Source: Candidatus Omnitrophota bacterium
Lineage (GTDB): Bacteria; Omnitrophota; Gorgyraeia; Zapsychrales; Fredricksoniimonadaceae
NCBI GenBank assembly: GCA_037141995.1
Contig: JBAXBM010000050.1
Coordinates: 1-11,466, forward strand
Direction of reading: 5' to 3'
DNA: 11,466 nt
The notes under the pieces are model-generated. The model saw only the letters and a list, made by a program, of their open reading frames with translations, ran no database searches and was not told the origin of the DNA. Shown piece by piece: positions 1-11,466 of this stretch. The first letter of the stretch is position 1. Each line of letters opens with the position of its first letter. A program made the translations under genes and the position numbers.

Positions 1-7
1 GTCTTCA

Positions 8-721
8 ATGTCTATTTTGATGATGATGAATATATTGGGTTTTATTCTTTGTACTATTGGGACTGTGATTTATTTCTTGGTGCGATGGTGGCATCTTAGA
101 AAACAAGGACGAGAATCCTCACGGGAGATTGGCTATTTTAATCTTATTGGCATTGCTTCTTTTATAGCCGGATTGAGTTTGTTTCTTTTCTGGTATTGTC
201 CTGTTTGCCACCTTGCGAGTGTCATTTTTACGTTAAACTTTAAGGGCATTGAGCTAGCATTTCTAAATTCCTGCATGATGTCCGGATTAGTATTCTTGAT
301 TTTTAAATTAAAATCACGATGGCGTTTTTTGCTAGTGATTCCTGTCGTTTTGATTGTTGCGTTATATTTTCTTCAAATGAAAAAGACATATGCTTTTGTC
401 AATATCTTTGAAAGCGCACGTTATGGAGGAATATCATCGGAGAAATTCTTTCAGCTATTGAAAGCTGATGGGCGTGGCTATGAGTGGATCCTTTACAGAA
501 GTCTTGCGAAGAACACGGGCTCTGATGCCAAGATATTGAGATTCTTGTTTGAACAAAAGAATTTTGATATTGATCGCCTTTTGTTTGACAATCCCAGCAC
601 GCCGGAAGATATCATGAACGAATTTTTCAAGGGCCAGTCGCAATACACATTAGCCATGCGATCAAGCCTGGATGACACTACGAAGAAGTATCTTATTTCC
701 CAGATGTTGTTGCGAAGGTGA
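8..721 (+). CDS. Hypothetical integral membrane protein (about four N-terminal TM helices plus a ~110-aa soluble C-terminal region)
   Basis: 237-codon ORF. Hydrophobic stretches: ILGFILCTIGTVIYFLV, LIGIASFIAGLSLFLFWY, FLNSCMMSGLVFLIF, FLLVIPVVLIVALYFL. No family recognised. There is no in-frame stop between the window edge and the ATG at 8, so the true start may lie outside the window. Confidence 0.55.
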   Translation: MSILMMMNILGFILCTIGTVIYFLVRWWHLRKQGRESSREIGYFNLIGIASFIAGLSLFLFWYCPVCHLASVIFTLNFKGIELAFLNSCMMSGLVFLIFKLKSRWRFLLVIPVVLIVALYFLQMKKTYAFVNIFESARYGGISSEKFFQLLKADGRGYEWILYRSLAKNTGSDAKILRFLFEQKNFDIDRLLFDNPSTPEDIMNEFFKGQSQYTLAMRSSLDDTTKKYLISQMLLRR

Positions 722-761
722 TGTAAGGTATTTTAAGAATCACATGGTTTATTGGCCGTAG

Positions 762-783
762 GGGCGGGCCCATGTGTCCGCCC
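762..783 (+). terminator. GC-rich hairpin downstream of the first gene (possible weak intrinsic terminator)
   Basis: GGGCGGGC (762-769) pairs with GTCCGCCC (776-783): 8 bp including one G.U, with a 6-nt loop. It lies 41 nt after the stop at 721. It is followed by GAGAAAAAATTTATTT, so the T-run is displaced by an A-run and this is not a canonical terminator. The G.U pair only works on the + strand. Confidence 0.3.
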
Positions 784-827
784 GAGAAAAAATTTATTTA
801 ATCCTATGTGAAAGATCAATATAATAT

Positions 828-855
828 TTGACAATACCGTCGTATGTGTTAAATT
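828..855 (+). promoter_or_regulatory. Sigma70-like promoter candidate for the AAA+/DUF4143 gene
   Basis: Perfect -35 TTGACA (828-833), 16-nt spacer, -10-like TAAATT (850-855, 4/6 match to TATAAT). It lies ~80 nt upstream of the ATG at 934. Confidence 0.4.
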
Positions 856-878
856 TGCTAATTAGGATTAGCAAATTT
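851..878. promoter_or_regulatory. Perfect 12-bp inverted repeat, candidate operator overlapping the -10/start site
   Basis: AAATTTGCTAAT (851-862), spacer TAGG, ATTAGCAAATTT (867-878); the arms are exact reverse complements. The central AATTAGGATT (860-869) recurs at 916-925. Confidence 0.5.
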
Positions 879-933
879 GATAATCACAGTGAGCATATTT
901 ATTTATGACGGATTAAATTAGGATTTAGATACG

Positions 934-2130
934 ATGAATGTTACTTATTCGCATAGGGTTACAGAGATTCTTAGGAGCAGGCTTAAGGAGCCACGCAGGA
1001 CCATTCAAATTGTTCTTGGCCCACGGCAAGTGGGGAAATCAACCGCTGTTCGGGGGGTTCTAAAACAGCATGTTGGGCCGGTTGTTTATGCGTTAGCGGA
1101 TCAATCCATGCCACTAGGTTCAGAGTGGATCGCGCGTCATTGGGCTGAAGCGCGGTTGCAGGTTCAGAAAAATGAACGTGTGATCCTTGCGTTGGATGAA
1201 ATTCAGAAAGTCCCTGGTTGGACCAGTGATGTCAAGCGGCTTTGGGATGAAGATACATACAAAGAACGGGATATTCATGTTGTCCTGACGGGGTCTTCAG
1301 CGTTGACTTTGCAGAAAGGGCTTACGGAAAGTCTATTGGGGCGTTTTGAAGTGATCTGGATGCCGCATTGGTCTTTTGTAGAATGCCGGGATGCTTTCGG
1401 TTGGGGGCTTGAAGATTATTTCTTTTTCGGGGGATATCCTGGAGCAGTTGCTTATTGTCAGGATGAAGACCGTTGGCGTAATTATATGATGACGTCGATG
1501 ATCGAGCCGGTATTGACGCGTGATATCGCCCTGTTGACGACGGTACATAATCCCGCGCTATTGCGGAGATTATTGTTCCTGACGTGTGAATATGCTTCCC
1601 AGGAATTATCATACAGGAAAATCCAGGGAATATTTCAGGATGTCAGCAATACTGTGACGATCTCAGCCTATCAGCGAATGCTCGAACAGTCTTTCCTGAT
1701 AGCGGGTCTTCAGAAATGGTCGGGCGGTGCGCTTCAGAAACGAAATTCAAGCCCCAAGTGGCTGCCGTTGAACACCGGGCTTGTTACGGCTATTCAGAAT
1801 AAAAACAGAGCCGAGTTAAAGAATGATCCTGTATTCTTTGGTCGCCTCGTAGAAACGTCCATCGGGGCGCATCTTTTTAATCAGGCGATGCTTTTTAATT
1901 TTGAAGTTTATTATTGGCGTGACGGGAATATGGAGATTGACTTTATTTTCAGGAAAGGGAATAAACTGGTAGCCATTGAGGTGAAAAGTGGTTTGAATAG
2001 CGATACCAAGGCGTTTACAGTTTTTCTTAAGAAATATCCCGAGGCCAAAGTGATGCTTGTCGGAGGGCAAGGAATGCCTCTCGAAGAATTCCTAACAACA
2101 CCGATAAAAAGTTTTTTTGAGTCGATGTAG
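934..2130 (+). CDS. AAA+ superfamily ATPase, COG1373 type (AAA_14 N-terminal domain plus DUF4143 C-terminal domain)
   Basis: 398-codon ORF. Walker A GPRQVGKST, Walker B-like VILALDEIQ, and a central helical region typical of this family. The C-terminal EIDFIF...AIEVKSG resembles a D...E-x-K nuclease-fold motif. Confidence 0.88.
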   Translation: MNVTYSHRVTEILRSRLKEPRRTIQIVLGPRQVGKSTAVRGVLKQHVGPVVYALADQSMPLGSEWIARHWAEARLQVQKNERVILALDEIQKVPGWTSDVKRLWDEDTYKERDIHVVLTGSSALTLQKGLTESLLGRFEVIWMPHWSFVECRDAFGWGLEDYFFFGGYPGAVAYCQDEDRWRNYMMTSMIEPVLTRDIALLTTVHNPALLRRLLFLTCEYASQELSYRKIQGIFQDVSNTVTISAYQRMLEQSFLIAGLQKWSGGALQKRNSSPKWLPLNTGLVTAIQNKNRAELKNDPVFFGRLVETSIGAHLFNQAMLFNFEVYYWRDGNMEIDFIFRKGNKLVAIEVKSGLNSDTKAFTVFLKKYPEAKVMLVGGQGMPLEEFLTTPIKSFFESM

Positions 2131-2171
2131 GGATAAAGCGAAGGGGCAGGCATGACCATCAAGGAGAAATC

Positions 2172-2990
2172 ATGAAAATCATTCATAATCTGGTGTACTT
2201 TTTTTTATCAATAGCCCTGGCACAGTTGTTAACGGGAATTTTCATCCCAGCCTGTATCATCCTTTCTATTTATCTTCGAATGAAGAAAGGGATATCTCTT
2301 AAGGAATTCTGGAAGCATGTCCCTAACATTTATGTTTCTATGATTTCGAGTATTTACCCGTTGGTATTTCTGGGATTTCCCGCCTTGCGCCTGATGGCCA
2401 AGAATGCCGGGAAAGGCTCAGGCGGAACGGCCCCTTTTATCATCGATACGGCGAAGCTTCAGCCCGGGGATGTGATCCTGACGGGCAAGGAGCGTACGGG
2501 TGCGATACAGCTGGCGAATATCCTGTCGGCGGGGATCGAGCATTGCCAGTGGACGCATGCGTGCATTTATATCGGTGATGAAAAGGTCATTGAGGCCCAG
2601 GCCAATGGCAAGGGTGTTATTCAGACCAATCTGCGCACATTTTACCTGGACCAGGGGTATCGCCTGAAAGTTTTAAGGCATAAGTTTCTGCCGGTAGACA
2701 AGATGTCCAAAGTGCTTGCCTATTGTGCCCAGGAGAAGGATAAGAATGCTTCTTACGATACCTGGGGCGTTTCCTTTTATGTCCTTGCCGCCATGATCCC
2801 GCCCATGTTCAGCGCCTGGCTTGACGGTGATTTCGCCGAGAAGTTCTTTGATGTCAGGGATGCTTACTTTTGCTCCGAACTTATTGCCGACGCTTTCAAA
2901 GCCGCTGACTGTGCCGTATTCGGCGAAAAAAGCTGGCGTGTTAAGCCTTTGGATTTCGCCTTTAATCCGGTGTTTCATGAGGTGGTGTGA
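2172..2990 (+). CDS. Membrane-anchored permuted papain-like (NlpC/P60-related) hydrolase, YaeF/YiiX family (Pfam PF05708-like)
   Basis: 272-codon ORF with a strong SD (AAGGAG just upstream of ATG 2172). Two N-terminal hydrophobic helices. Then LQPGDVILTG...WTHACIYIGDEKVIEAQ...ASYD...YFCSELIADAF: the His precedes the Cys and the CSEL motif is present, as in the permuted YiiX family. It lies only 41 nt after the AAA+ gene. Confidence 0.78.
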   Translation: MKIIHNLVYFFLSIALAQLLTGIFIPACIILSIYLRMKKGISLKEFWKHVPNIYVSMISSIYPLVFLGFPALRLMAKNAGKGSGGTAPFIIDTAKLQPGDVILTGKERTGAIQLANILSAGIEHCQWTHACIYIGDEKVIEAQANGKGVIQTNLRTFYLDQGYRLKVLRHKFLPVDKMSKVLAYCAQEKDKNASYDTWGVSFYVLAAMIPPMFSAWLDGDFAEKFFDVRDAYFCSELIADAFKAADCAVFGEKSWRVKPLDFAFNPVFHEVV

Positions 2991-3000
2991 GGCGGTGGGG

Positions 3001-3069
3001 ATGAAATATTTTCATGGTTTTCTGCTTTTTTATGTGGCATACTTGTTTCTGGTGGGTTTTATCCAATAG
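3001..3069 (+). promoter_or_regulatory. Conserved intergenic element, copy 1 (shared with 4750-4817); candidate promoter/leader of the SPFH gene pair
   Basis: 3003-3069 aligns with 4753-4817 at roughly 83% identity (hand alignment, one 1-nt indel). It contains an AT-rich hairpin/palindrome ATGAAA-TAT-TTTCAT (3001-3015), a T-rich tract, and TGGCATACTTGTTTCT (3035-3050), a partial match to the sigma54 -24/-12 consensus TGGCAC-N5-TTGCW. There are exactly 17 nt from the end of the element to the ATG in both copies. Confidence 0.5.
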
Positions 3070-3086
3070 ACCAAAAGGACAGATAT

Positions 3087-4067
3087 ATGCAGAATGAACA
3101 GGGATTGATCTTTAAAGGGATATATGAGTTTGAAGATCCGCTTGGCGTTCTTGTTGCCGCTAAGGTTCCGTCGGTTGGTACCTTGGATCTTTATTCCGGG
3201 ACGGCTGTTTTGGTCAAGGCCAATCAGTGCGCGCTGTTTATTTATAACGGCAAGATCGCCGATATTTTGATGCAGGGCTTGCACGAGGTCAAGACCGAGA
3301 ATTTTCCGCTTTTAACGCGGCTGGCCAACTGGCAGTTTGGGTTTGAAAGTCCTCTCCGGTGTGAGGTATGGTTTTTTTCTGGCGCTGTTTACACCAACAG
3401 GCGCTGGGGAACGTCTCAGCCAGTGATCTGTGATTTTCCGGATCACGGGATAGTGCCGGTGAGGGCGTACGGGATCTTTAATGTGGTCATGCGTGATCCC
3501 AATAAATTTTTTATGACGTTGATCGGGACGCGCAATGCGTACGATATAACTGAACTTGAGGGTCTGGTTCAGGCTCAGATCACGGAAATTCTTCCTGCGG
3601 CCATGCATGTTGTCCCGTCACTTCAGGACTTAAACAAGTCACAGACGCTGGTGGCAAAAGAACTGCAGGGGTTGGTCAATAAAACGATCGAGCAATACGG
3701 CATTGAAATTGTGAGCCTGCAGGTGATCTCGATGATCCCGTCGAAAGAGATCATGGAGGCGCTCGATGCCAAGGCGTCCATGAACATCATCGGCAATAAA
3801 CAGGAATATCTGCTTTATAAGGCGGCCAACAGCTTGATCGGGAGTCATGAGGGTGGTCATGCGAAAGGTTCCAGTGATTCCATGCAGTTGATGATGGGGT
3901 TGATGCTCGGGAAAAGCCTCCTGGATGCCAAGGAAAAAGAGCACACCATGCTGCTGAAAACAGAAGAAGCGCCTCCGATGATTGAAACAAGGTCATGTTC
4001 AAAATGTAAAGCTGTTGTCAAAGCCAGCGACAAGTTTTGTGCGTCCTGCGGAACGGAGCTGAAATGA
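3087..4067 (+). CDS. SPFH/Band-7 family protein with C-terminal zinc ribbon (COG4260, Pfam Band_7_1, B. subtilis YdjI-like)
   Basis: 326-codon ORF with SD AAGGA about 8 nt upstream. N-terminal pattern GTAVLVKANQCALFIYNGKIADILMQGLHEVKTENFPLL...GFESPLRCEVWFFS...VRAYGIFNVVMRDPNKFF is typical of the YdjI-like SPFH family. The C-terminus CSKCKAVVKASDKFCASCGTEL is a CxxC...CxxC zinc ribbon. Confidence 0.85.
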   Translation: MQNEQGLIFKGIYEFEDPLGVLVAAKVPSVGTLDLYSGTAVLVKANQCALFIYNGKIADILMQGLHEVKTENFPLLTRLANWQFGFESPLRCEVWFFSGAVYTNRRWGTSQPVICDFPDHGIVPVRAYGIFNVVMRDPNKFFMTLIGTRNAYDITELEGLVQAQITEILPAAMHVVPSLQDLNKSQTLVAKELQGLVNKTIEQYGIEIVSLQVISMIPSKEIMEALDAKASMNIIGNKQEYLLYKAANSLIGSHEGGHAKGSSDSMQLMMGLMLGKSLLDAKEKEHTMLLKTEEAPPMIETRSCSKCKAVVKASDKFCASCGTELK

Positions 4068-4738
4068 ACTTTGATATCATATGCCCCAATTGTGGTGCGG
4101 CATCTTCCATTGTGGTGGGTGTTTGCCCGTATTGCAAGACGGTCTTGTCTATTAATTCTGAGAAAGGGGATCATTCTCTGTCGGCGGTGAAAGCAGCCCA
4201 TGAAGCCGGAAAAACGGACAGGTCTCTGTCACTGGTGACGGCACTTGAACAGGAAAAGCCGGAGCTGCTGGATAATATTGAATTTGTTTTGTTGTATACC
4301 AGAATTCTTTTTGAAGTGGATGGGCCTTCCAGCAAGATCAAGTCTTTGCTGACCAAAGCCCTGATCCTGGCGCCCGGTCATCCTGATGTGTTGGAATATC
4401 TGGAAGTGATCGAGGCCGAGTCCATGATGACCCGGGAGCCCAATGATGAAGGTGAACAGCGTCTCATGCGACTCATTCGCCGCTCGCCCAATAATGTTTA
4501 TGCGTTGTTTTTCCTCGGGAGTCATTTGTTTTGGGTTCAAGGAAACGGTGGTGCTGCCCTGAAGTATCTTGAGCCGTGCGTCAGGTTGCGCCCTAATTTT
4601 ATACGGGCCAAGGCCTGTTTGGCGATGATCTACAAGGAATTAAACAAGCCGGATATGGCTAAAAGATTTTTTGATGAGTGTGCCGCCAGCACATCGAGCA
4701 ATAGGACGAAGTCATTTTTCAAAAGGCTTACGGATTGA
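4064..4738 (+). CDS. Zinc-ribbon plus TPR-repeat protein
   Basis: I place the start at ATG 4064, forming an ATGA overlap with the upstream stop (TGA 4065-4067). The ORF track's 4037 start would add 9 codons overlapping the SPFH gene. N-terminus CPNCG...CPYCKTVL is a zinc ribbon. The C-terminal half has TPR-like helical repeats (ALKYLEPCVRLRPNFIRAKACLAMIYKELNKPDMAKRFFDECA). Confidence 0.8.
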   Translation: MNFDIICPNCGAASSIVVGVCPYCKTVLSINSEKGDHSLSAVKAAHEAGKTDRSLSLVTALEQEKPELLDNIEFVLLYTRILFEVDGPSSKIKSLLTKALILAPGHPDVLEYLEVIEAESMMTREPNDEGEQRLMRLIRRSPNNVYALFFLGSHLFWVQGNGGAALKYLEPCVRLRPNFIRAKACLAMIYKELNKPDMAKRFFDECAASTSSNRTKSFFKRLTD

Positions 4739-4749
4739 TGCTCTAGCGG

Positions 4750-4817
4750 CCAAAATATTTTTTGGTTTTTTGCCTTTCTATATGGCATACTTCTTTCGGG
4801 TGGATTTTATTCAATAG
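4750..4817 (+). promoter_or_regulatory. Conserved intergenic element, copy 2; candidate promoter/leader of the 703-aa gene
   Basis: Homologous to 3003-3069. Hairpin/palindrome CCAAAA-TATT-TTTTGG (4750-4765), a T-rich tract, and TGGCATACTTCTTTCG (4783-4798). There are 17 nt from the terminal CAATAG to ATG 4835, the same as copy 1. Confidence 0.5.
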
Positions 4818-4834
4818 TCTTAAGGGGGTTAAAG

Positions 4835-6946
4835 ATGTTGGAAAAACTGTATTCATTTGCCGGATTCCGGAAATTGATTTGTTGGTTGATGGCTGTTGTT
4901 TTTTTGACGGGATCAGTGATGCCCTTATATGCGCAGGGTGTGGCCGGCCTTTCATCTTCCGGGATGATGAACGTAAGCCGGACATTCACGCCGCCGATTG
5001 TCAGGGGGATGACGATTGATCCCAAGGATCCGTTTGCTTTTAAGTTTCTGATGGACCGCGGGGATGACAAGGGGTTGTCCCTGGAGGCTCGGACGGCAGT
5101 TTATGAGAAGTTGATCAAATATTTCATGGCGTCATTGGCGGTGCCGGAAGAAGATGTCTGGGTCAACCTTTCTCCCTATGAAGGGGATCGTTTGATCGCA
5201 GATAATTTTGGCATGACCGTTATGGGGCGCGACCTTCTGGAAATGGATTATGCGTTAAAGCGTGTCACGGCATCGTTATTTCATCCTGATCAGGAGCCGG
5301 GGAAGGCGTTCTGGAAGAAGGTTTATCAGGCGGCCTATGAACGTTATGGGACAACGGATGTGCCGGTCGATACGTTCAACAAGGTCTGGATCGTTCCGAG
5401 TGAGGCAAAGGTTTATGAGGACGGCAATTCTGTTATTCTGGTGAAAAGCCATCTCAAGGTCATGCTGGAGCAGGATTATTTGGCGCAGAAAAAGAATGCC
5501 GCGGTACACCCCGATAACAAGAATGATAAAGATTCCCAGTTTTCCCGCGATATTGTGCGTGAAGTCATGATTCCTATTCTTGAAAAAGAAGTCAATGACG
5601 GCGAAAATTTTGCAGTGTTACGTCAGATCACCGCATCGCTGATCCTTGCCACCTGGTATAAGAAAGCCTGGAAAGATGTTTTGTTGAACCAGGGATATAC
5701 GGATCATTCCAAGGTCAAAGGCGTTGACCAGGATCCTGCTAATAACCAGATTATCTACAACCAATATGTGGAAGCATTCAAGCAGGGCGCTGTGAATCTG
5801 GTCCGTGAAGAATATGATACGTTATCGCAGGAAATGATGCCACGGAAATATTTCTCCGGCGGTTACGGCACAAAGATGACAACAGATGATGGGCAGACAA
5901 CGTCTTTACAGCAACGATTAGAAGAAGTATCTCAGTCGCCGATGTTGGATCCAAAGAAAACGGAGTTGGTGGCGGCGTCTTTGATGCCAACGGCAAGAAC
6001 AACAGTTGCCGGGTTATTCCGACCTGTTTCACGCTTGGCGCTTCTTATTGTGTTGTGGACAGGGGCTTTCTTTCAACCAACGACAGCGGCTTTAGCAGAA
6101 TATAGAAGTACACAAAGTTTTACATATACGAACGGTTCTAGAACTCAAAAAATGGAGTTGATTGTTACTGATCCTGGCGTTGTTGTGACAGATGTGTGGG
6201 ATACTCAATCAAAGATGCTACGTGATTTCACGGATACTGTAAATACAGTAATTATAATGTCTAGGAGTAATGAGTTAGGGGCCTTAGATACACTTGGGAA
6301 GCTTGAAGCAAGAGTCAAAGCAGGGAAGGCCTCAGAAGAGGCGATATTGAAGGGGTTGGTTCAAAAGCAATTTGTTGCTTTATTAATGAATGGGAAAAAG
6401 CCTGTTGATATATCTCCGTTTCTTCAAGCGTATACTGATTGTTTGCAAGAGATAGGGCGGGTACGAAAGACTATAGACAACAATAATAAGATACGGGCTT
6501 ATAATGAAGCTGTGGAGCAGAATAATGCTAAAGCACGAGAATTCAATAAAAATCAAGCGAAGTATTCCTCTGTTGTGAAGGGGTATGTTGAGATTTTTAA
6601 TAAGAAGCAACGTGACCCAGTAGAAATGAAAAAATTATCGGTAAGCATAGGTCAACTTCTTGCGCAACCAGATTTGCCTTCAAATTTCAGGGCAACTCTT
6701 CAGCAAATTAAAACATGGATAGATAAGGCGGAGAATGTAAAGAAACCAAAGCTTGTGACAGATAAGAATCTTGGTGGTATTGATTTGAATGCCAATTCTT
6801 TTAACCTTGAGGTTGAATCGCGTAAGGAAGCCAGGGGCTTGGTGTCTCCTGTTTTGGTTGATCTTGTTGCCCTTGAAGGCTTGAGCCCACGGATATTGTC
6901 CGTCACGTCCGCCAGTGAATATGTAAAGATGTTTTCAGGAAAGTAA
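4835..6946 (+). CDS. Large secreted or membrane-associated protein of unknown function, with an N-terminal signal peptide and an internal hydrophobic segment
   Basis: 703-codon ORF with SD AAGGGGG 6-7 nt upstream. The N-terminus MLEKLYSFAGFRKLICWLMAVVFLTGSVMPLYAQG looks like a Sec signal peptide. A second signal-peptide-like segment lies at aa 384-421. The C-terminal third is Lys/Asn/Gln-rich and looks coiled-coil-like. No family recognised. Confidence 0.8.
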   Translation: MLEKLYSFAGFRKLICWLMAVVFLTGSVMPLYAQGVAGLSSSGMMNVSRTFTPPIVRGMTIDPKDPFAFKFLMDRGDDKGLSLEARTAVYEKLIKYFMASLAVPEEDVWVNLSPYEGDRLIADNFGMTVMGRDLLEMDYALKRVTASLFHPDQEPGKAFWKKVYQAAYERYGTTDVPVDTFNKVWIVPSEAKVYEDGNSVILVKSHLKVMLEQDYLAQKKNAAVHPDNKNDKDSQFSRDIVREVMIPILEKEVNDGENFAVLRQITASLILATWYKKAWKDVLLNQGYTDHSKVKGVDQDPANNQIIYNQYVEAFKQGAVNLVREEYDTLSQEMMPRKYFSGGYGTKMTTDDGQTTSLQQRLEEVSQSPMLDPKKTELVAASLMPTARTTVAGLFRPVSRLALLIVLWTGAFFQPTTAALAEYRSTQSFTYTNGSRTQKMELIVTDPGVVVTDVWDTQSKMLRDFTDTVNTVIIMSRSNELGALDTLGKLEARVKAGKASEEAILKGLVQKQFVALLMNGKKPVDISPFLQAYTDCLQEIGRVRKTIDNNNKIRAYNEAVEQNNAKAREFNKNQAKYSSVVKGYVEIFNKKQRDPVEMKKLSVSIGQLLAQPDLPSNFRATLQQIKTWIDKAENVKKPKLVTDKNLGGIDLNANSFNLEVESRKEARGLVSPVLVDLVALEGLSPRILSVTSASEYVKMFSGK

Positions 6947-6971
6947 TAGTGGCAGGGTATTGAATATTTCA

Positions 6972-6999
6972 TCGACAAAATCACAATCAACCTTATAAT
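6972..6999 (+). promoter_or_regulatory. Sigma70-like promoter candidate upstream of ygiQ
   Basis: -35 TCGACA (6972-6977, 5/6 match), 16-nt spacer, perfect -10 TATAAT (6994-6999). The predicted start near 7006 would put the 7053-7181 element in a ~175-nt leader. Confidence 0.4.
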
Positions 7000-7052
7000 G
7001 GCGCTGTTCAGGCGGGATTAATGGCTGGCGGCGCTATGAGAAAATCGTAGAT

Positions 7053-7181
7053 GTTTAGCGCCTTGTGTGCTCGCCGCGCCGAGCGCCGAGTGCTTTTTCG
7101 CCTGGAACGAGGGGGTTTATCCCCCGAGAGAAGCCGAAAGAGTGGCGCGGTATGGCAGGCGAGAAATCGAATGCGCTAAAC
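7053..7181 (+). repeat. 129-nt structured intergenic element, copy A (candidate cis-regulatory or REP-like structured RNA; family not recognised)
   Basis: About 82% identical to 8965-9095. Five nested stems: P1 7053-7061/7173-7181, P2 7070-7075/7158-7163, P3 7076-7080/7144-7148, P4 7093-7100/7135-7142, P5 7111-7115/7121-7125. Four compensatory changes relative to copy B. Confidence 0.7.
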
Positions 7182-8960
7182 ATGCATAAAAAAACTTCGT
7201 TTCTTCCCATGTATCTTGATGAGATGGCGGCTCGGGGGTGGGGTGAGCTGGACGTTATTATCATCAGCGGCGATGCGTATGTGGATCATCCTTCCTACGG
7301 CACGGCATTGATCGGGCGTCTCCTGGAAAGCAAGGGTTATCGCGTGGGTATTATCGCCCAGCCGGACTGGCGGTCGCTGGATGATTTTACGCGCCTGGGG
7401 CGTCCGCGTTTGTGCGTTTGTGTGACGGCGGGCAATGTGGATTCCATGGTTGCCCATTACACGGCCAACAAGCGGCGGCGGCAGGGGGATGATTTTGCGC
7501 CGGGCGGCAAGGACGGCTTGAGGCCGGATCGTGCGGCGATTGTGTATGCTAATCGTGCTAAGGCGGCATTCAAGGGCCTGCCGGTGATCCTGGGCGGTGT
7601 TGAGGCCAGCATGCGGCGCTTGGCGCATTACGATTACTGGGATGATGCGGTGCGGCGTTCGGTATTGATCGATGCCAAGGCGGACATGATCATTTACGGC
7701 ATGGCAGAGCGGCCTGTTGTGGAAGTGATGGCGCGGCTGGCGCAGGGTGAGGCGATCGCAGCGATCCGTGATGTGCGCGGCACCGTGGTGCGTGTGAAGC
7801 CGGCGGAATTTCCTGCGGGGACGATAGAATTGCCGTCGTTTGAAGATATCAGCCGTGACCCTGAAATTTTTAACCAGGCATTTCGCCTGGCTTATGCGGA
7901 AATGTCGCCGGAAGACGGCAAGCCTTTGGCCCAGCGGCATGCGGATCAGTGTGTGCTGCAATTGCCCCCGGCATTGCCATTGACACCTCAAGAACTTGAC
8001 GCCGGTTATGATCTGGCGTATGCGCGCACATGGCATCCGTCGTATGATGCCTTGGGCGGCGTGAAGGGTTTAGAGACAGTGCGCTGGTCGATCACAGCGG
8101 TGCGCGGCTGTCCCGGGGAGTGTCATTTTTGCGGGATCACGTTCCATCAGGGGCGGATCGTGCAGAGCCGGAGCGTGGCGTCCATTGTGCGGGAAGCTGA
8201 AGGCCTCGCGCGCGACCCGGCGTTTCGGGGGACGATTCAGGATGTGGGCGGGCCGACAGCGAATTTATACGGTGCCAGTTGTGCCAATTGGAATAAAGGC
8301 CGGGTATGCCGCGGCAAGCAGTGCCTGATGCCATCGAAATGCCCGTCGCTGGATCTGGGGTGCCGGGAAGCGGTTTCCTTGTATGAAGCGATACGGCGTG
8401 TGCCGGGCATAAAACATATGTTCGTGCAGAGCGGTTTGAGGTATGATCTCTTGCTCGAACCGGCGGCGCTCGATTATTTCAAGGTGTTATGCCGTTATCA
8501 TGTCAGCGGGCAGATGAAGGTGGCTCCCGAGCATACATCCGACGAGGTTTTAGCGCTCATGAACAAGCCGCCCTATGCGCGGTATGAGGCTTTTGTCCGG
8601 CTTTTCAATGAGATCAATGCGGGGCTTGGCAAGAAGCAGTTTCTGGTGAATTATTTTGTCAGCGCGCATCCCGGGGCAGGGCTTAAGGAAGCGTTTGATT
8701 GTGCGTCAATGCTTTTATCCCGCGGGATGCATCCGGAACAGGTGCAAGATTTTCTGCCTTTACCCATGACGGTATCGGCGTGCATGTATCACACGGGGAA
8801 GCATCCTCTGACGGGCAAGAGTGTTTATGTGCCGCGGAAAGACAATGAACGCGCGATGCAGAGGGCCCTTGTGCAGTCGCAGAATCCTGGTAATGCGCCC
8901 TTGATTGACAAGGCGCTTAATATTTTAGGTAAACAGGGAGTTAAGAAAAAATTTAAATAA
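7182..8960 (+). CDS. ygiQ: YgiQ-family radical SAM protein (UPF0313)
   Basis: The N-terminus KTSFLPMYLDEMAARGWGELDVIIISGDAYVDHPSYGTALIGRLLESKGYRVGIIAQPDW closely parallels E. coli YgiQ (FLPMSREEMDQLGW...VTGDAYVDHPSFG...RVGIIAQPDW). Radical SAM CxxxCxxC motif CPGECHFC at 8109-8132. The start is uncertain. The ORF track begins at 7065, but codons 1-39 are a read-through of the repeat element. ATG 7182 is the first Met after it, and ATG 7152 is an alternative. Confidence 0.88.
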   Translation: MHKKTSFLPMYLDEMAARGWGELDVIIISGDAYVDHPSYGTALIGRLLESKGYRVGIIAQPDWRSLDDFTRLGRPRLCVCVTAGNVDSMVAHYTANKRRRQGDDFAPGGKDGLRPDRAAIVYANRAKAAFKGLPVILGGVEASMRRLAHYDYWDDAVRRSVLIDAKADMIIYGMAERPVVEVMARLAQGEAIAAIRDVRGTVVRVKPAEFPAGTIELPSFEDISRDPEIFNQAFRLAYAEMSPEDGKPLAQRHADQCVLQLPPALPLTPQELDAGYDLAYARTWHPSYDALGGVKGLETVRWSITAVRGCPGECHFCGITFHQGRIVQSRSVASIVREAEGLARDPAFRGTIQDVGGPTANLYGASCANWNKGRVCRGKQCLMPSKCPSLDLGCREAVSLYEAIRRVPGIKHMFVQSGLRYDLLLEPAALDYFKVLCRYHVSGQMKVAPEHTSDEVLALMNKPPYARYEAFVRLFNEINAGLGKKQFLVNYFVSAHPGAGLKEAFDCASMLLSRGMHPEQVQDFLPLPMTVSACMYHTGKHPLTGKSVYVPRKDNERAMQRALVQSQNPGNAPLIDKALNILGKQGVKKKFK

Positions 8961-8964
8961 TGGT

Positions 8965-9095
8965 ATTCAGCGCCCTGTGTTTTCGCCGCGCCAAGCGCCG
9001 AGTGCCTTTCCGCCTGGAACGAGGGGGCCGCAGCCCCCGAGAGAAGCCGGAAGGGTGGCGCGATAAGGCAGGCGAAAAGATCTGATGCGCTGAAC
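8965..9095 (+). repeat. 129-131-nt structured intergenic element, copy B
   Basis: Same architecture as copy A: P1 8966-8973/9087-9094, P2 8980-8987/9071-9078, P3 8988-8992/9057-9061, P4 9005-9012/9048-9055, P5 9023-9027/9034-9038. It starts 5 nt after the ygiQ stop and ends 31 nt before the ABC-F start. Confidence 0.7.
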
Positions 9096-9125
9096 GTGTG
9101 CAATTAAACAAGAGAGGTAATCAGC

Positions 9126-10745
9126 ATGATCACGGTTAATAATGTTACGCTTCAATATGGCCAGCGGAAACTTTTTTCCGGTGTTAATATCAGTTTCTCC
9201 CAGGGTAATTGCTACGGCCTTATCGGCGCCAATGGATCCGGCAAATCAACGTTCCTGAAGATCTTGTCCGGCGAGATTGACTCAACCGAAGGTACAGTGG
9301 CCATTGATCCCGGCAAGCGCATGTCGGTGTTGCGCCAGGATCATTTTGCGTTTGATGAGCAGACGGTTTTGACAACGGTCATCATGGGGCACAAGCGGCT
9401 TTTTGATGTCATGCTGGAAAAAGACGCCATTTATGCCAAGGCAGATTTTACTGATGCCGACGGCATGCGTGTTTCCGAGCTGGAAGCCGAGTTTGCGGAA
9501 ATGGACGGGTGGAACGCGGAATCTGATGCCGGCAAACTCTTGGCGGAACTGGGGATCGCGACCTCAGCGCACACCCAGCAGATGAAACAGCTCGAGGGCG
9601 GCGACAAGGTGCGTGTGCTGTTGGCCCAGGCGCTTTTTGGCAATCCCGATATCCTTCTTCTCGACGAGCCGACGAACCATCTTGATGTCGAGACCTGCAT
9701 GTGGCTGGAGGAATTTCTTTCCCGTTTCGAGAATACGGCGATCGTTGTTTCCCATGACCGCCATTTTCTCGACAATGTGTGCACGCATATCGCCGACATT
9801 GATTTCGGGAAGGTTAAGATTTACTCCGGCAATTATACGTTCTGGTCGGAATCAAGCCGCCTCGCCGCAAAGCAGCGTAGTGAAGAGAATAAGAAGGTCG
9901 AGGACCGCCGCAAGGAATTGCAGGATTTCATCGCACGCTTCAGTTCCAATTTGTCAAAGTCGCGTCAGGCAACAAGCCGTAAAAAGATCCTCGAGAAACT
10001 TGTCATCGAGGACATTGAACCGTCTTCGCGTAAATATCCGTATGTGCATTTTGAGCAGGAACGCGAGGCCGGCAACGACCTCTTGGGGGTGGATGATCTG
10101 GCCAAATCTTTGGACGGGCAGGTCATGTTCAAGAAGTTATCATTTACGATTGAAAAGGGAGACAAGGTGGCTTTTGTGGGATCCAATGATCTGATCAAGA
10201 CGACACTTTTTCAGATTCTCATGGGCGAACTTCCGGCGGATAAAGGGACGTTCAAGTGGGGCTTCTCGACAAAGCGCGCCTATTTCCCGAAAGACAATGC
10301 CGAATATTTCAAGTCTGATCTCAGTGTCGTTGACTGGCTGAGGCAGTATTCCGAAGAGAAGGCCGAAGTTTTTATCCGCGGCTTTTTAGGCAAGATGCTT
10401 TTTACCGGTGAAGAATCCCAGAAACCGGCCAAGGTCCTTTCAGGCGGCGAGAAAGTCCGCTGTATGCTTTCACGCATGATGCTCATGAAGCCCAACGTTG
10501 TGATTCTCGACGAGCCGACCAGTCACCTGGATCTCGAGTCGATCACCGCACTCAATGAGGGGCTGAAGCGCTTTAAGGGCACGATCCTTTTCTCGTCGCA
10601 TGACCATGAGCTGGTGCAGACCGTCGCCAACCGCATCATCGAGATCACGCCGGCGGGCATGATCGACCGTACGGGTACAACGTTTGATGATTATCTGTCC
10701 GATGAACGCGTCAAAACCCTGCGGGCAGAGTTTGCCAGGGTTTAA
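9126..10745 (+). CDS. ybiT: ABC-F family ATPase with two nucleotide-binding domains, YbiT-like
   Basis: 539-codon ORF with SD GAGAGG about 8 nt upstream. NBD1 has Walker A GANGSGKST (9225-9251) and Walker B ILLLDEPTNHLD. A Lys/Arg-rich inter-domain linker (SRFSSNLSKSRQATSRKK) follows. NBD2 has signature LSGGEKVR and Walker B VVILDEPTSHLD. Overall collinear with E. coli YbiT (NVT.Q.G...YGLIGANGSGKSTF.KIL.G...LRQD.FAF.E.TVL.TVIMGHK). Confidence 0.88.
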   Translation: MITVNNVTLQYGQRKLFSGVNISFSQGNCYGLIGANGSGKSTFLKILSGEIDSTEGTVAIDPGKRMSVLRQDHFAFDEQTVLTTVIMGHKRLFDVMLEKDAIYAKADFTDADGMRVSELEAEFAEMDGWNAESDAGKLLAELGIATSAHTQQMKQLEGGDKVRVLLAQALFGNPDILLLDEPTNHLDVETCMWLEEFLSRFENTAIVVSHDRHFLDNVCTHIADIDFGKVKIYSGNYTFWSESSRLAAKQRSEENKKVEDRRKELQDFIARFSSNLSKSRQATSRKKILEKLVIEDIEPSSRKYPYVHFEQEREAGNDLLGVDDLAKSLDGQVMFKKLSFTIEKGDKVAFVGSNDLIKTTLFQILMGELPADKGTFKWGFSTKRAYFPKDNAEYFKSDLSVVDWLRQYSEEKAEVFIRGFLGKMLFTGEESQKPAKVLSGGEKVRCMLSRMMLMKPNVVILDEPTSHLDLESITALNEGLKRFKGTILFSSHDHELVQTVANRIIEITPAGMIDRTGTTFDDYLSDERVKTLRAEFARV

Positions 10746-10749
10746 CTAT

Positions 10750-11466
10750 CTATTTTAGTATTGTTATCAGTTCCTGCGGGGAAACGATGCGGACGAAATC
10801 GACGGCGCGGGGATGCTCGACCGGGCAGACACAATAACAGGGGACGTCAGGATATTCCGTGTGAAAGGCTTTAAGGCCTGTCAGGTCGCGCAGGCCAATA
10901 TGCGGGGTGGATTTGCATTCAATGGCATAGAGGATGGACGCTCCGCGGCTGATCAGCAGGTCAACTTCAGCTCCATTGTTTGTGCGCCAGAAGTTGAATT
11001 TCCAGTCGAGCTGGTGGTATTCATTGAGGTGTGTCAATTCCTGGATAACCCATTGTTCAAACAGTCGGCCTTGTTGGATCGGGTTGTTGTTGTCTCTAAG
11101 GGTTCCCAGGATCGAGCGGGTGACGCCATTATCAAAGAAGTAGAATTTCGGGCTATGGCTCATCCTTTGACGCAGGCTTTTCAAATAAGGGAAAATAAAA
11201 AAGCCGATGAGGGTATCTTCAAGGATGGCGTAATATTCCCGGACCGTTGATAATGAAACCTGGCATTCCCGGGAGACGGAAGAAAAATTGATCTGTTGGG
11301 CAAATTGAGCCGCCGCAATATCAAGAAAATTCTGAAACCCGTTAAGGTTTCGCACCAAAGCTTCGGCTTTGATTTCTTCGCTGAGGTAGGCAACGGTGTA
11401 GGCGCGCAGGAGATCTTGTGCCTGGTCCATTTTATTTTCCAGTAGCAGGCTGTAAATTCTTGGCAT
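10750..11466 (-). CDS. AAA+/DUF4143 ATPase paralogue, C-terminal ~238 aa only (the N-terminal ATPase domain probably lies beyond the window edge)
   Basis: The ORF runs to the window edge. YLSEEIKAEALVRNLNGFQNFLDIAAAQFAQQINFSSVSRECQVSLSTVREYYAILEDTLIGFF is the typical DUF4143 region. The C-terminal EVDLLI...AIECKST (10912-10968) repeats the D...E-x-K motif seen in the 934-2130 protein. No Walker A is visible, consistent with 5' truncation by the window. Confidence 0.82.
   Translation of the reverse strand: MPRIYSLLLENKMDQAQDLLRAYTVAYLSEEIKAEALVRNLNGFQNFLDIAAAQFAQQINFSSVSRECQVSLSTVREYYAILEDTLIGFFIFPYLKSLRQRMSHSPKFYFFDNGVTRSILGTLRDNNNPIQQGRLFEQWVIQELTHLNEYHQLDWKFNFWRTNNGAEVDLLISRGASILYAIECKSTPHIGLRDLTGLKAFHTEYPDVPCYCVCPVEHPRAVDFVRIVSPQELITILK

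Follow-up and report, generated by a model that had tools for sequence, protein, structure and literature searches.

A gene with an internal signal-peptide-like leader belongs to a multi-copy Omnitrophota family with constant ends and replaceable middles

Candidatus Omnitrophota are uncultured, mostly ultra-small bacteria with a suspected life on other cells, and annotation is lacking for the majority of their proteins. The stretch analyzed here, designated the window, is 11,466 nucleotides of an Omnitrophota metagenome-assembled genome (MAG; assembly GCA_037141995.1, contig JBAXBM010000050.1, positions 1 to 11,466 of the forward strand). An open reading frame (ORF) at positions 4835–6946 of the + strand encodes a protein of 703 residues, as an earlier note on the sequence had stated. 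Databases list the identical protein, from two contigs or sources, as hypothetical and assign it to a Candidatus Omnitrophota MAG. The ORF contains an internal segment resembling a signal peptide, followed by an AT-rich interior. Probably, it is a genuine single gene of a large Omnitrophota family, in which positions 5984–6840 constitute a payload cassette that lies between two constant modules and opens with its own leader.

The protein begins with a predicted Sec-type signal peptide (aa 1–33, 4835–4933, + strand). The basic residues K4, R12, and K13 are followed by an 18-residue hydrophobic stretch, LICWLMAVVFLTGSVMPL, and by the sequence P-L-Y-A↓Q, with predicted cleavage at YA↓Q between A33 and Q34. 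The N-terminal signal peptide recognized in the earlier note thus has the expected layout. The start codon, ATG 4835, is preceded by a strong Shine–Dalgarno (SD) sequence, AAGGGGG, with a pairing energy of −10.9 kcal/mol. The signal peptide is followed by a conserved N-module (aa 34–343, 4934–5863, + strand) that extends from WVNLSPYE to YFSGG, aligns to all 119 listed homologues and defines the family. Its invariant columns include W109-V-N-L-S-P114, E116, and Y339-F340. A linker (aa 344–383, 5864–5983, + strand) is retained in the closest subfamily only, where it aligns with P0002, P0008, and P0040. The coverage by listed homologues accordingly falls from 119 to about 13 over aa 341–400.

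The internal leader (aa 384–421, 5984–6097, + strand) forms the 5' edge of the variable cassette. Codon 384 is an ATG at position 5984, and the translation reads from there MPTARTTVAGLFRPVSR-LALLIVLWTGAFF-QPTTAALA-EY; the peptide starting at this codon is MPTARTTVAGLFRPVSRLALLIVLWTGAFFQPTTAALAEY. The n-region carries R388, R396, and R400, and the core (aa 401–413, nt 6035–6073) comprises the 13 residues LALLIVLWTGAFF. An A-L-A motif at aa 419–421 ends at nt 6097. Codon, core and motif end were all reproduced as previously read. The segment has the layout of a signal peptide, namely a basic n-region, a core of 7–15 residues and small residues at −3 and −1. A signal-peptide heuristic, which looks for a basic n-region, an uncharged core and a small-x-small site, marks exactly two places in the ORF, aa 14–25 and aa 401–410. 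AlphaFold2 (AF2) models a helix at aa 399–412 of the leader with a predicted local confidence score (pLDDT) below 50.

The cargo that follows (6098–6763, + strand) is AT-rich, with a GC content of 0.383, and is an orphan. In the AF2 model, it is composed of a short β-hairpin (aa 428–441) and a long helical bundle (aa 448–634), whose helices have pLDDT values of about 70–90. The protein is closed by a conserved C-module (aa 644–703, 6764–6943, + strand) extending from GGIDLN at aa 647–652 to EGLSPRILSV. This is a divergent subfamily variant common to P0002, P0004, P0005, P0006, P0008, and P0040. Residues G647, I649, and G682 are invariant across the family.

The family to which the ORF belongs is undescribed until now, is almost confined to Omnitrophota and is present in multiple copies per genome. 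A protein search matched at least 2,786 homologous protein clusters, and the named matches are all from Candidatus Omnitrophota or Omnitrophica; the 119 homologues listed were mapped onto the ORF. A genomic search returned at least 595 matches, of which the 80 best loci were used for locus statistics, and 72 complete family genes were extracted from genomic loci for counts of length and C-module. Nearly all of the 80 loci are labelled Omnitrophota or Omnitrophica. About one fifth are labelled 'uncultured Planctomycetales' (third-party annotation assemblies; the label is unchecked and possibly wrong), and single loci bear the labels 'uncultured bacterium' and Candidatus Elulimicrobium sp. Family copies occur in tandem on the same strand at 12 of the 80 loci. 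At least nine copies from the MAG nHGRbin18 were among the sequences retrieved, and the MAG of the window holds at least two. A viral origin is very unlikely, as only 3 relatives were found among 2.9 million viral contigs.

The modules match no family in the libraries searched. The whole protein has no match in Pfam or NCBIfam at E ≤ 0.01 and nothing significant in PHROGs or PADLOC. A permissive Pfam scan of its three parts gave no significant match either, and aa 644–703 alone yielded no Pfam or NCBIfam match even at E ≤ 10, models of sorting tags included. The modules have no sequence match in the PDB and no fold match. Neither the family nor its motifs are mentioned in the literature searched, which included papers on Omnitrophota.

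From the sequences, the family architecture is a predicted cleavable Sec signal peptide, an N-module of about 310 residues, a variable payload and a C-module of about 55 residues. The complete genes encode 403–2,336 residues. All 119 homologues span aa ~11–343 of the ORF; coverage collapses over aa 343–420, is nearly nil over aa 440–620 and returns over the last 60 residues.

The N termini of family members consist of a basic n-region, a core of 12–15 residues, a proline and then [A/S/V/G]-[Y/F]-A↓Q. Of 93 aligned N termini, 65 have the xxA↓Q site, and in 56 of these 65 the residue at −3 is A, S, V, or G. The signal peptide of the present ORF ends VMPLYA↓QG, and its leucine at −3 is found at just 3 of the 65 sites. 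When applied to 172 family proteins, the heuristic recognized 131 N termini, which served as its positive control. Since signal-peptide N termini occur throughout the family, the N-module is predicted to be exported: the signal peptide would lead the whole chain to the Sec translocon and place the N-module outside the cytoplasm.

The C-module consensus, GGIDLNxxNLxLQIKRDGxGVPLPxxQQxLxxIxIDGLVPxILxIxP, closes nearly all full-length homologues, and the motif was found in 59 of the 72 complete genes (~80%). The identity of C-modules follows that of N-modules (Spearman rho 0.68), a correlation reached by 0 of 500 Mantel permutations. The two modules are therefore inherited or co-adapted together. 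At the 80 loci, every C-module seen belonged with an N-module gene. Three apparent exceptions there are single frames broken by a G-run frameshift or an in-frame stop. A profile search with the C-module returned short fragments only, and three of them that were followed on long contigs proved to be two split genes and one stand-alone remnant.

The remnant, in L088 (4551–5243), is an 80-residue ORF with a C-module only. It lies directly behind a 128-residue receiver-domain gene, from which a single TAA separates it in frame; there is no N-module within 5 kb upstream, and no other C-module lacking an N-module was seen. In other MAGs, several family genes are interrupted, either by frameshifts at homopolymeric G-runs (GGTGGGGGGGGGGGAG; GGGGGGG) or by stop codons in frame. 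These sites lie in L063 (~7317–7377), L061 (~11258–11301), L024 (7177–7179), L086 (4020–4022 and 4992–4994), and L087 (~4932–5004). L024 and the second L086 site have a TAG stop and L088 has TAA; the first stop of L086 was not read. In the split genes, the same frame runs on into the C-module. They may be pseudogenes or reflect sequencing errors, phase variation or recoding.

The middle region ranges from 100 to ~2,000 residues and is usually unrelated between family members. N-module identity reaches at least 70% in 664 pairs, of which just 16 show any similarity in the middle. Eight example pairs are 74–85% identical from residue 1 to residues ~356–406. Beyond this point, seven of the pairs lose all identity over hundreds of residues and regain it, at 48–88%, from GGIDL or shortly before it. 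In the eighth pair, P0010 and P0013, a weaker match of 32% resumes earlier. Because identity stops and resumes at fixed points, the middle is a cassette with defined borders. The 5' border (~360–400) coincides with the start of the internal segment in the ORF (aa 384–400). The middle is thus replaced wholesale between otherwise close relatives and is not merely diverged. The earlier note had proposed an exchangeable internal cassette and an alignment of homologues as a check; the alignment reveals shared sequence at aa ~11–343 and in the C-terminal motif with different middles, and the cassette is strongly supported at the level of the family, with unrelated middles between flanks that are 74–88% identical.

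Most payloads are orphans. Among 120 listed family proteins, the present one included, 103 have no recognizable Pfam domain. Domains found in the others include WD40, FN3, receiver, HATPase, NUDIX, methyltransferase, GT2, GT5, HD, and PPDK_N. The payload of the ORF itself (aa 422–645) had 0 matches when searched with phmmer against 1.84 billion representative proteins. Within the family set, its only partners are P0002 and, weakly, P0113. Residues 818–975 of P0002 align in a high-scoring segment pair of query aa 448–703, with 29% identity continuing through the C-module. The match in P0002 comes after a stretch of ~400 residues that is not present in the ORF.

One pair with close N-modules, P0025 and P0063, was compared at the DNA level. 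The two genes lie in different gene contexts, and their N-modules differ at ~45% of third positions, so the exchange of their middles is old. Recent gene conversion between tandem paralogues was also considered and rejected, as N-modules of tandem copies are just 41–65% identical and the P0025/P0063 pair shows the third-position difference given above.

The tetrapeptide D-x-A-M was observed 8.5 times more often than expected from composition (1.12 vs 0.13 per 1000 aa). It clusters 0–60 residues past the N-module, occurring within 120 residues in 63 of 172 proteins, and 0–30 residues ahead of GGIDL, occurring within 60 residues in 34 of 154. It is found at both cassette borders, for example at aa ~345–350 of P0007 and before GGIDL in P0018, and is absent as such from the ORF. 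Possible roles are those of a linker or a processing site, and it might also be a scar of recombination.

Leader-like segments recur at the junction between N-module and payload. Segments of 19 residues with a Kyte–Doolittle (KD) average of at least 1.5, the cut-off used for bin counts at the junction, are found in 10% of proteins in the first 50-residue bin past the N-module and in 9% in the second, against 2–7% in later bins. By the heuristic, signal-peptide-like patterns in the 110 residues after the N-module number 1.07 per 1000 aa, vs 0.19 elsewhere. This is a 5.6-fold enrichment (20 of 172 proteins, Poisson p = 1.4e-9), and junction leaders are present in ~12–18% of family members. They include Sec-type leaders with AxA-like sites (SSAQA↓L, AQA↓S, ALA↓I, SFA↓A), two leaders of twin-arginine consensus (Tat-like; SRRNFIKGLL, GRRQFLSKLG) and one with a lipobox (VTGC). 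Junction leaders resemble the N-terminal signal peptides of the family in hydrophobicity and in positive charge on the N-terminal side. It seems that the cassette arrived with an export leader of its own, since paralogues have leaders of Sec, Tat and lipobox type at this very junction. In P0002, P0008, and P0040, the internal leader is kept in position and hydrophobic character and its sequence has drifted. Its retention at the same place despite drift argues for selection.

A correlation between leaders and payloads of secreted type was sought and failed: the 16 leader-bearing members contain one Pfam domain at the gathering threshold (GH26), and a second member has a match to HEAT_2 below threshold. 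One family member, L025_1494 (L025, 2673–4148), shares its twin-arginine-type leader together with its GH76-like cargo with P0121 (aa ~205–240, TRRDFIKGVAG), a protein with no N-module, which is in line with leader and cargo travelling together. In P0121, the leader is likewise internal, after ~210 residues of other sequence, and the record of P0121 lists kinase Pfam domains too.

The internal segment might alternatively be a stop-transfer transmembrane (TM) helix and the sole anchor of the protein, with the N-module in the periplasm and the helical domain and C-module in the cytoplasm. The 21 residues of aa 401–421 are free of charge, their hydrophobic character persists at the same position in P0002, P0008, and P0040 despite drift, and an isolated low-confidence helix such as that of aa 399–412 is common for membrane segments. 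In sequential membrane insertion, moreover, transfer is generally halted by whichever hydrophobic segment comes next behind a signal peptide. However, the truly hydrophobic core is just 13 residues long and is followed by Q-P-T-T. Its best KD 19-mer is 1.54, under the cut-off of 1.6 used for hydrophobic segments, and a crude, position-independent hand calculation on the Hessa scale sums to about +3.9 kcal/mol over LALLIVLWTGAFFQPTTAA. The junction segments of the family have a median of +3.0 kcal/mol, like the +2.8 kcal/mol of the cleaved N-terminal signal peptides. The charges are also opposite to those expected from the positive-inside rule for an N-out/C-in helix: three arginines lie within 13 residues upstream, and only R424, with E422, within 15 residues downstream. 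Finally, ~80% of the family lack such a segment, so that their N- and C-modules share one compartment, and a helix here would part two co-evolving modules. A central TM helix, which the earlier note had rated equally with its other readings, is hence somewhat unlikely; it keeps a place among the explanations, but the short core and N-side charges look more like a signal peptide.

A second translation start at ATG 5984 would yield a 320-residue product beside the full-length protein, with its own signal peptide cleaved after A-L-A at residue 421. The in-frame ATG directly precedes a complete n-h-c layout, the junction leaders of several paralogues are also preceded by methionine (for example MGRRQFLSK in L058 and MRFPLKAM in L032), and only one of the 21 internal in-frame ATGs pairs better with the anti-SD sequence. 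That pairing, −4.9 kcal/mol, is ordinary for internal ATGs. It compares with −10.9 kcal/mol at the gene's own start and with −8.7 and −8.3 kcal/mol among the five ATG gene starts tested, three of which are thus stronger; the other two have −5.5 and −4.0 kcal/mol. The SD-like GGTGG/GGAG lies 11–18 nt upstream of the ATG, which also counts against initiation there. The closest homologue, P0002, lacks a methionine where M384 aligns, and there is also none in the vicinity of the P0008 leader. Methionine is enriched at cassette borders within the D-x-A-M motif, which explains many junction methionines without initiation. Internal initiation, as once suggested for this site, is therefore very improbable.

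The base composition changes across the junction. The GC content of 6060–6840 is 0.393 (39%). The 60-nt lines from 6061 to 6840 have GC contents of 0.32–0.43, except for 0.52 at 6301–6360, and line 6841–6900 has 0.50. These values match the earlier hand counts almost line by line. Upstream in the ORF, the counted range of 40–55% holds at its upper end but not at its lower, the computed lines being 0.35–0.55. GC1, GC2, and GC3 (the GC contents of the three codon positions) are 0.53, 0.335, and 0.566 in aa 1–343, vs 0.48, 0.338, and 0.333 in aa 422–643. The proposed shift in GC is greater than chance, with GC3 of 0.574 in aa 41–343 and 0.333 in the middle (Fisher p = 6e-8). As GC2 is equal and GC3 falls, the drop sits at synonymous sites and does not come from amino-acid content. 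In the C-module, GC3 is back up to 0.45.

The same contrast characterizes the family, whose mean GC3 is 0.55 in the N-module, 0.44 in the middle and 0.54 in the C-module. In 62 of 67 genes, GC3 of the N-module is above that of the middle (Wilcoxon p = 6e-12), and the difference of 0.24 in the present ORF is within the top tenth of the family. The GC content of the window is very uneven, with 0.35 at the 5' end and 0.62 in the YgiQ gene. Positions 6060–6840 are among the lowest 3.6% of equal-length segments in the 11.5 kb, and the 5' end is lower still. Within the window, GC3 tracks protein conservation, being 0.63 in YgiQ, 0.64 in ABC-F, 0.43 in the poorly conserved first ORF and 0.33 in the cassette. 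The low GC3 of the payload need not imply a recent foreign origin; the AT-rich synonymous sites probably stem from relaxed constraint on codons, or from a smaller GC bias linked to recombination, in a payload of fast turnover.

A recent, locus-specific fusion, in which two secreted-protein genes were joined in frame by loss of a stop codon and the AT-rich half is foreign, would account for the two signal-peptide-like segments and for the sharp drop of GC3 from 0.57 to 0.33 after the second. Split family genes do exist in other MAGs. But the split versions examined are G-run frameshifts or in-frame stops and not genes with their own starts, and the drop in GC3 is the family norm, as described above. 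The arrangement must be old, since P0002, just 66% identical, already shows this fused order. The C-terminal 60 residues belong with the N-module family and not to an independent gene, and no separate-gene homologue of aa 422–645 exists among 1.84e9 representatives. It is accordingly very unlikely that the gene arose by such an event. The fusion proposed in the earlier note stands in a weaker, evolutionary sense, as leaders recur at the junction, but neither half was found as a separate gene.

It is extremely unlikely that the ORF is an artefact, that is, a chimeric contig, a mis-assembly or a chance open frame. The heterogeneous GC content of this MAG contig, 0.35–0.63 across the window, might raise the suspicion. 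Against it, the exact protein is recorded twice, P0002 comes from independent assemblies with the same order of N-module, leader, helical domain and C-module, and thousands of homologues hold the frame open over the junction.

The genomic neighbourhood of the ORF is not conserved with the family. The locus of P0002 has no neighbours in common with the window, and no positional orthologue of the SPFH/TPR/YgiQ/ABC-F context was found. Clustering of flanking ORFs from the 80 loci yielded only an antisense shadow ORF, response regulators and ABC-F paralogues, at 9 loci each. Upstream of the ORF lie a gene for an SPFH/Band-7 protein ending in a zinc ribbon (3087–4067) and, overlapping it, a gene for a TPR protein that opens with a zinc ribbon (4037–4738). 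The listed TTG start of the TPR gene has no SD sequence, and an ATG at ~4064 is the more likely start. Downstream, a promoter-like site (6972–6999, TCGACA-16-TATAAT, 11/12) lies between the stop of the ORF and the YgiQ radical-SAM gene. The YgiQ match begins at residue 46 of the ORF starting at GTG 7065, which lacks an SD sequence, so its real start is probably ATG 7152 or later. A terminator-like hairpin with a T-run is found at 6832–6851 within the coding region of the C-module, ~100 nt ahead of the stop. It is probably a chance occurrence, since four terminator-like sites were found in the 2.6 kb scanned and 2.0 are expected. The window also contains two AAA_14/DUF4143 ATPase genes, at 934–2130 (+ strand) and at 10750–11466 (− strand), the second of which runs past the window end.

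Several known systems resemble the family in part. In flagellin (FliC), which is exported without a cleavable Sec signal peptide, both terminal regions are conserved and the domain between them is hypervariable. The likeness lies in the co-evolving constant termini and in a middle that differs in length and fold between close relatives and may hold enzyme domains. The Omnitrophota family differs in its predicted cleavable Sec signal peptide, in its N-module, an α/β domain of ~310 residues, and in a C-module of just ~55 residues. Pfam scans gave no match to Flagellin_N or Flagellin_C, and the searches for PDB and fold matches were negative as well. The likeness to flagellin is thus one of logic, a constant handle with a variable insert.

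Cargo proteins of the T9SS CTD, PEP-CTERM/exosortase and LPXTG/sortase systems likewise comprise many paralogues with a Sec signal peptide, a short C-terminal domain and diverse payloads. However, the Omnitrophota C-module lacks the layout of motif, TM helix and basic tail of PEP-CTERM and LPXTG proteins, and it is nearly always accompanied by a large N-module, which tag systems do not need. Models of the T9SS, PEP-CTERM, and LPXTG tags gave no match, and no sortase-like neighbour is present among the flanking ORFs of the 80 loci.

Polymorphic toxins (Rhs, CdiA, MafB, LXG) and the mosaic fibres of Bdellovibrio share with the family a conserved N-terminal region, wholesale replacement of payloads and multiple copies. 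The phylum Omnitrophota itself is suspected of predatory or parasitic lifestyles (PMC10066038). In polymorphic toxins, the variable part is the extreme C terminus and is usually followed by an immunity gene, whereas the Omnitrophota proteins are closed by a conserved C-module, have no conserved downstream partner and, in the 103 of 120 cases noted above, contain no Pfam domain, of a toxin or otherwise. Internal signal sequences and signal-anchors, as in viral polyproteins and type II membrane proteins, show an internal n-h-c layout with positive charges on the N-terminal side. In a signal-anchor, the upstream part is cytoplasmic; as the upstream N-module here has its own predicted cleavable signal peptide, the mechanism is not applicable without further assumptions. 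The Omnitrophota family is closest in logic to flagellin and to C-terminal-tag cargo, and in turnover to polymorphic effectors, and is a member of none of them.

The explanation we consider probable, a payload cassette with its own leader between constant modules, would involve the following. A gene for an exported or membrane-anchored protein would have been captured, leader included, between the two constant modules. This subfamily would then have kept the leader as a hydrophobic element that interacts with the membrane and does not serve as an N-terminal, independently translated signal peptide. For the family as a whole, the simplest account is likewise that cassettes came from genes of exported or membrane-anchored proteins, leaders included, and that only some lineages kept the leader.

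A number of points weigh against this explanation. The databases searched contain no stand-alone relative of the payload, which leaves the capture of this cassette itself hypothetical. In the one pair compared at the DNA level, the exchange is old, and neither a mechanism nor a site of recombination emerged from the analysis. The conservation of the leader in four diverged subfamily members argues for a function, which the explanation does not supply. The export of the N-module is predicted from the −3/−1 rule and from motif conservation. If the internal segment were a stop-transfer anchor, the C-module would be cytoplasmic here but outside the cytoplasm in most paralogues, and a role shared by all of them would be hard to reconcile with this. 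Lastly, some payloads are normally cytoplasmic (REC, NUDIX, HATPase, methyltransferase, GT2) and fit uneasily with simple Sec export.

Such normally cytoplasmic domains were seen behind the signal peptide and N-module in P0054, P0079, P0099, P0103, P0104, P0034, P0080, and P0107. These eight proteins have no hydrophobic segment (KD 19-mer ≥ 1.6) just after the N-module. Most of the eight have none anywhere downstream; later segments, which may lie before or after the domains, are present in P0099 (886–904) and P0107 (770–788 and 940–958).

A broader and more speculative reading, which we regard as doubtful, is that the constant modules form a handle that would export, anchor or display hundreds of payloads per lineage, as an effector or surface-display arsenal for the host- or prey-dependent lifestyle that has been proposed for these nanobacteria. 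The payloads would then include captured pre-proteins with Sec, Tat, and lipoprotein leaders as well as normally cytoplasmic enzymes, and the ORF at 4835–6946 would be one payload carrier, with an orphan helical payload.

The ORF exposes a thousands-strong family of predicted exported proteins, in which two constant modules without a match in the libraries searched enclose interchangeable and mostly orphan payloads. For genome annotation, an internal signal-peptide call in these genomes indicates a module boundary and not a missed gene start. The Sec, Tat-like, and lipobox leaders fossilized at the junction would provide a rare direct record of the capture of pre-protein genes into a scaffold. 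If the constant modules are a device for sorting, anchoring or assembly, the family would define much of the surface and secreted repertoire of the phylum and would also help to find the proteins that mediate contact with host or prey.

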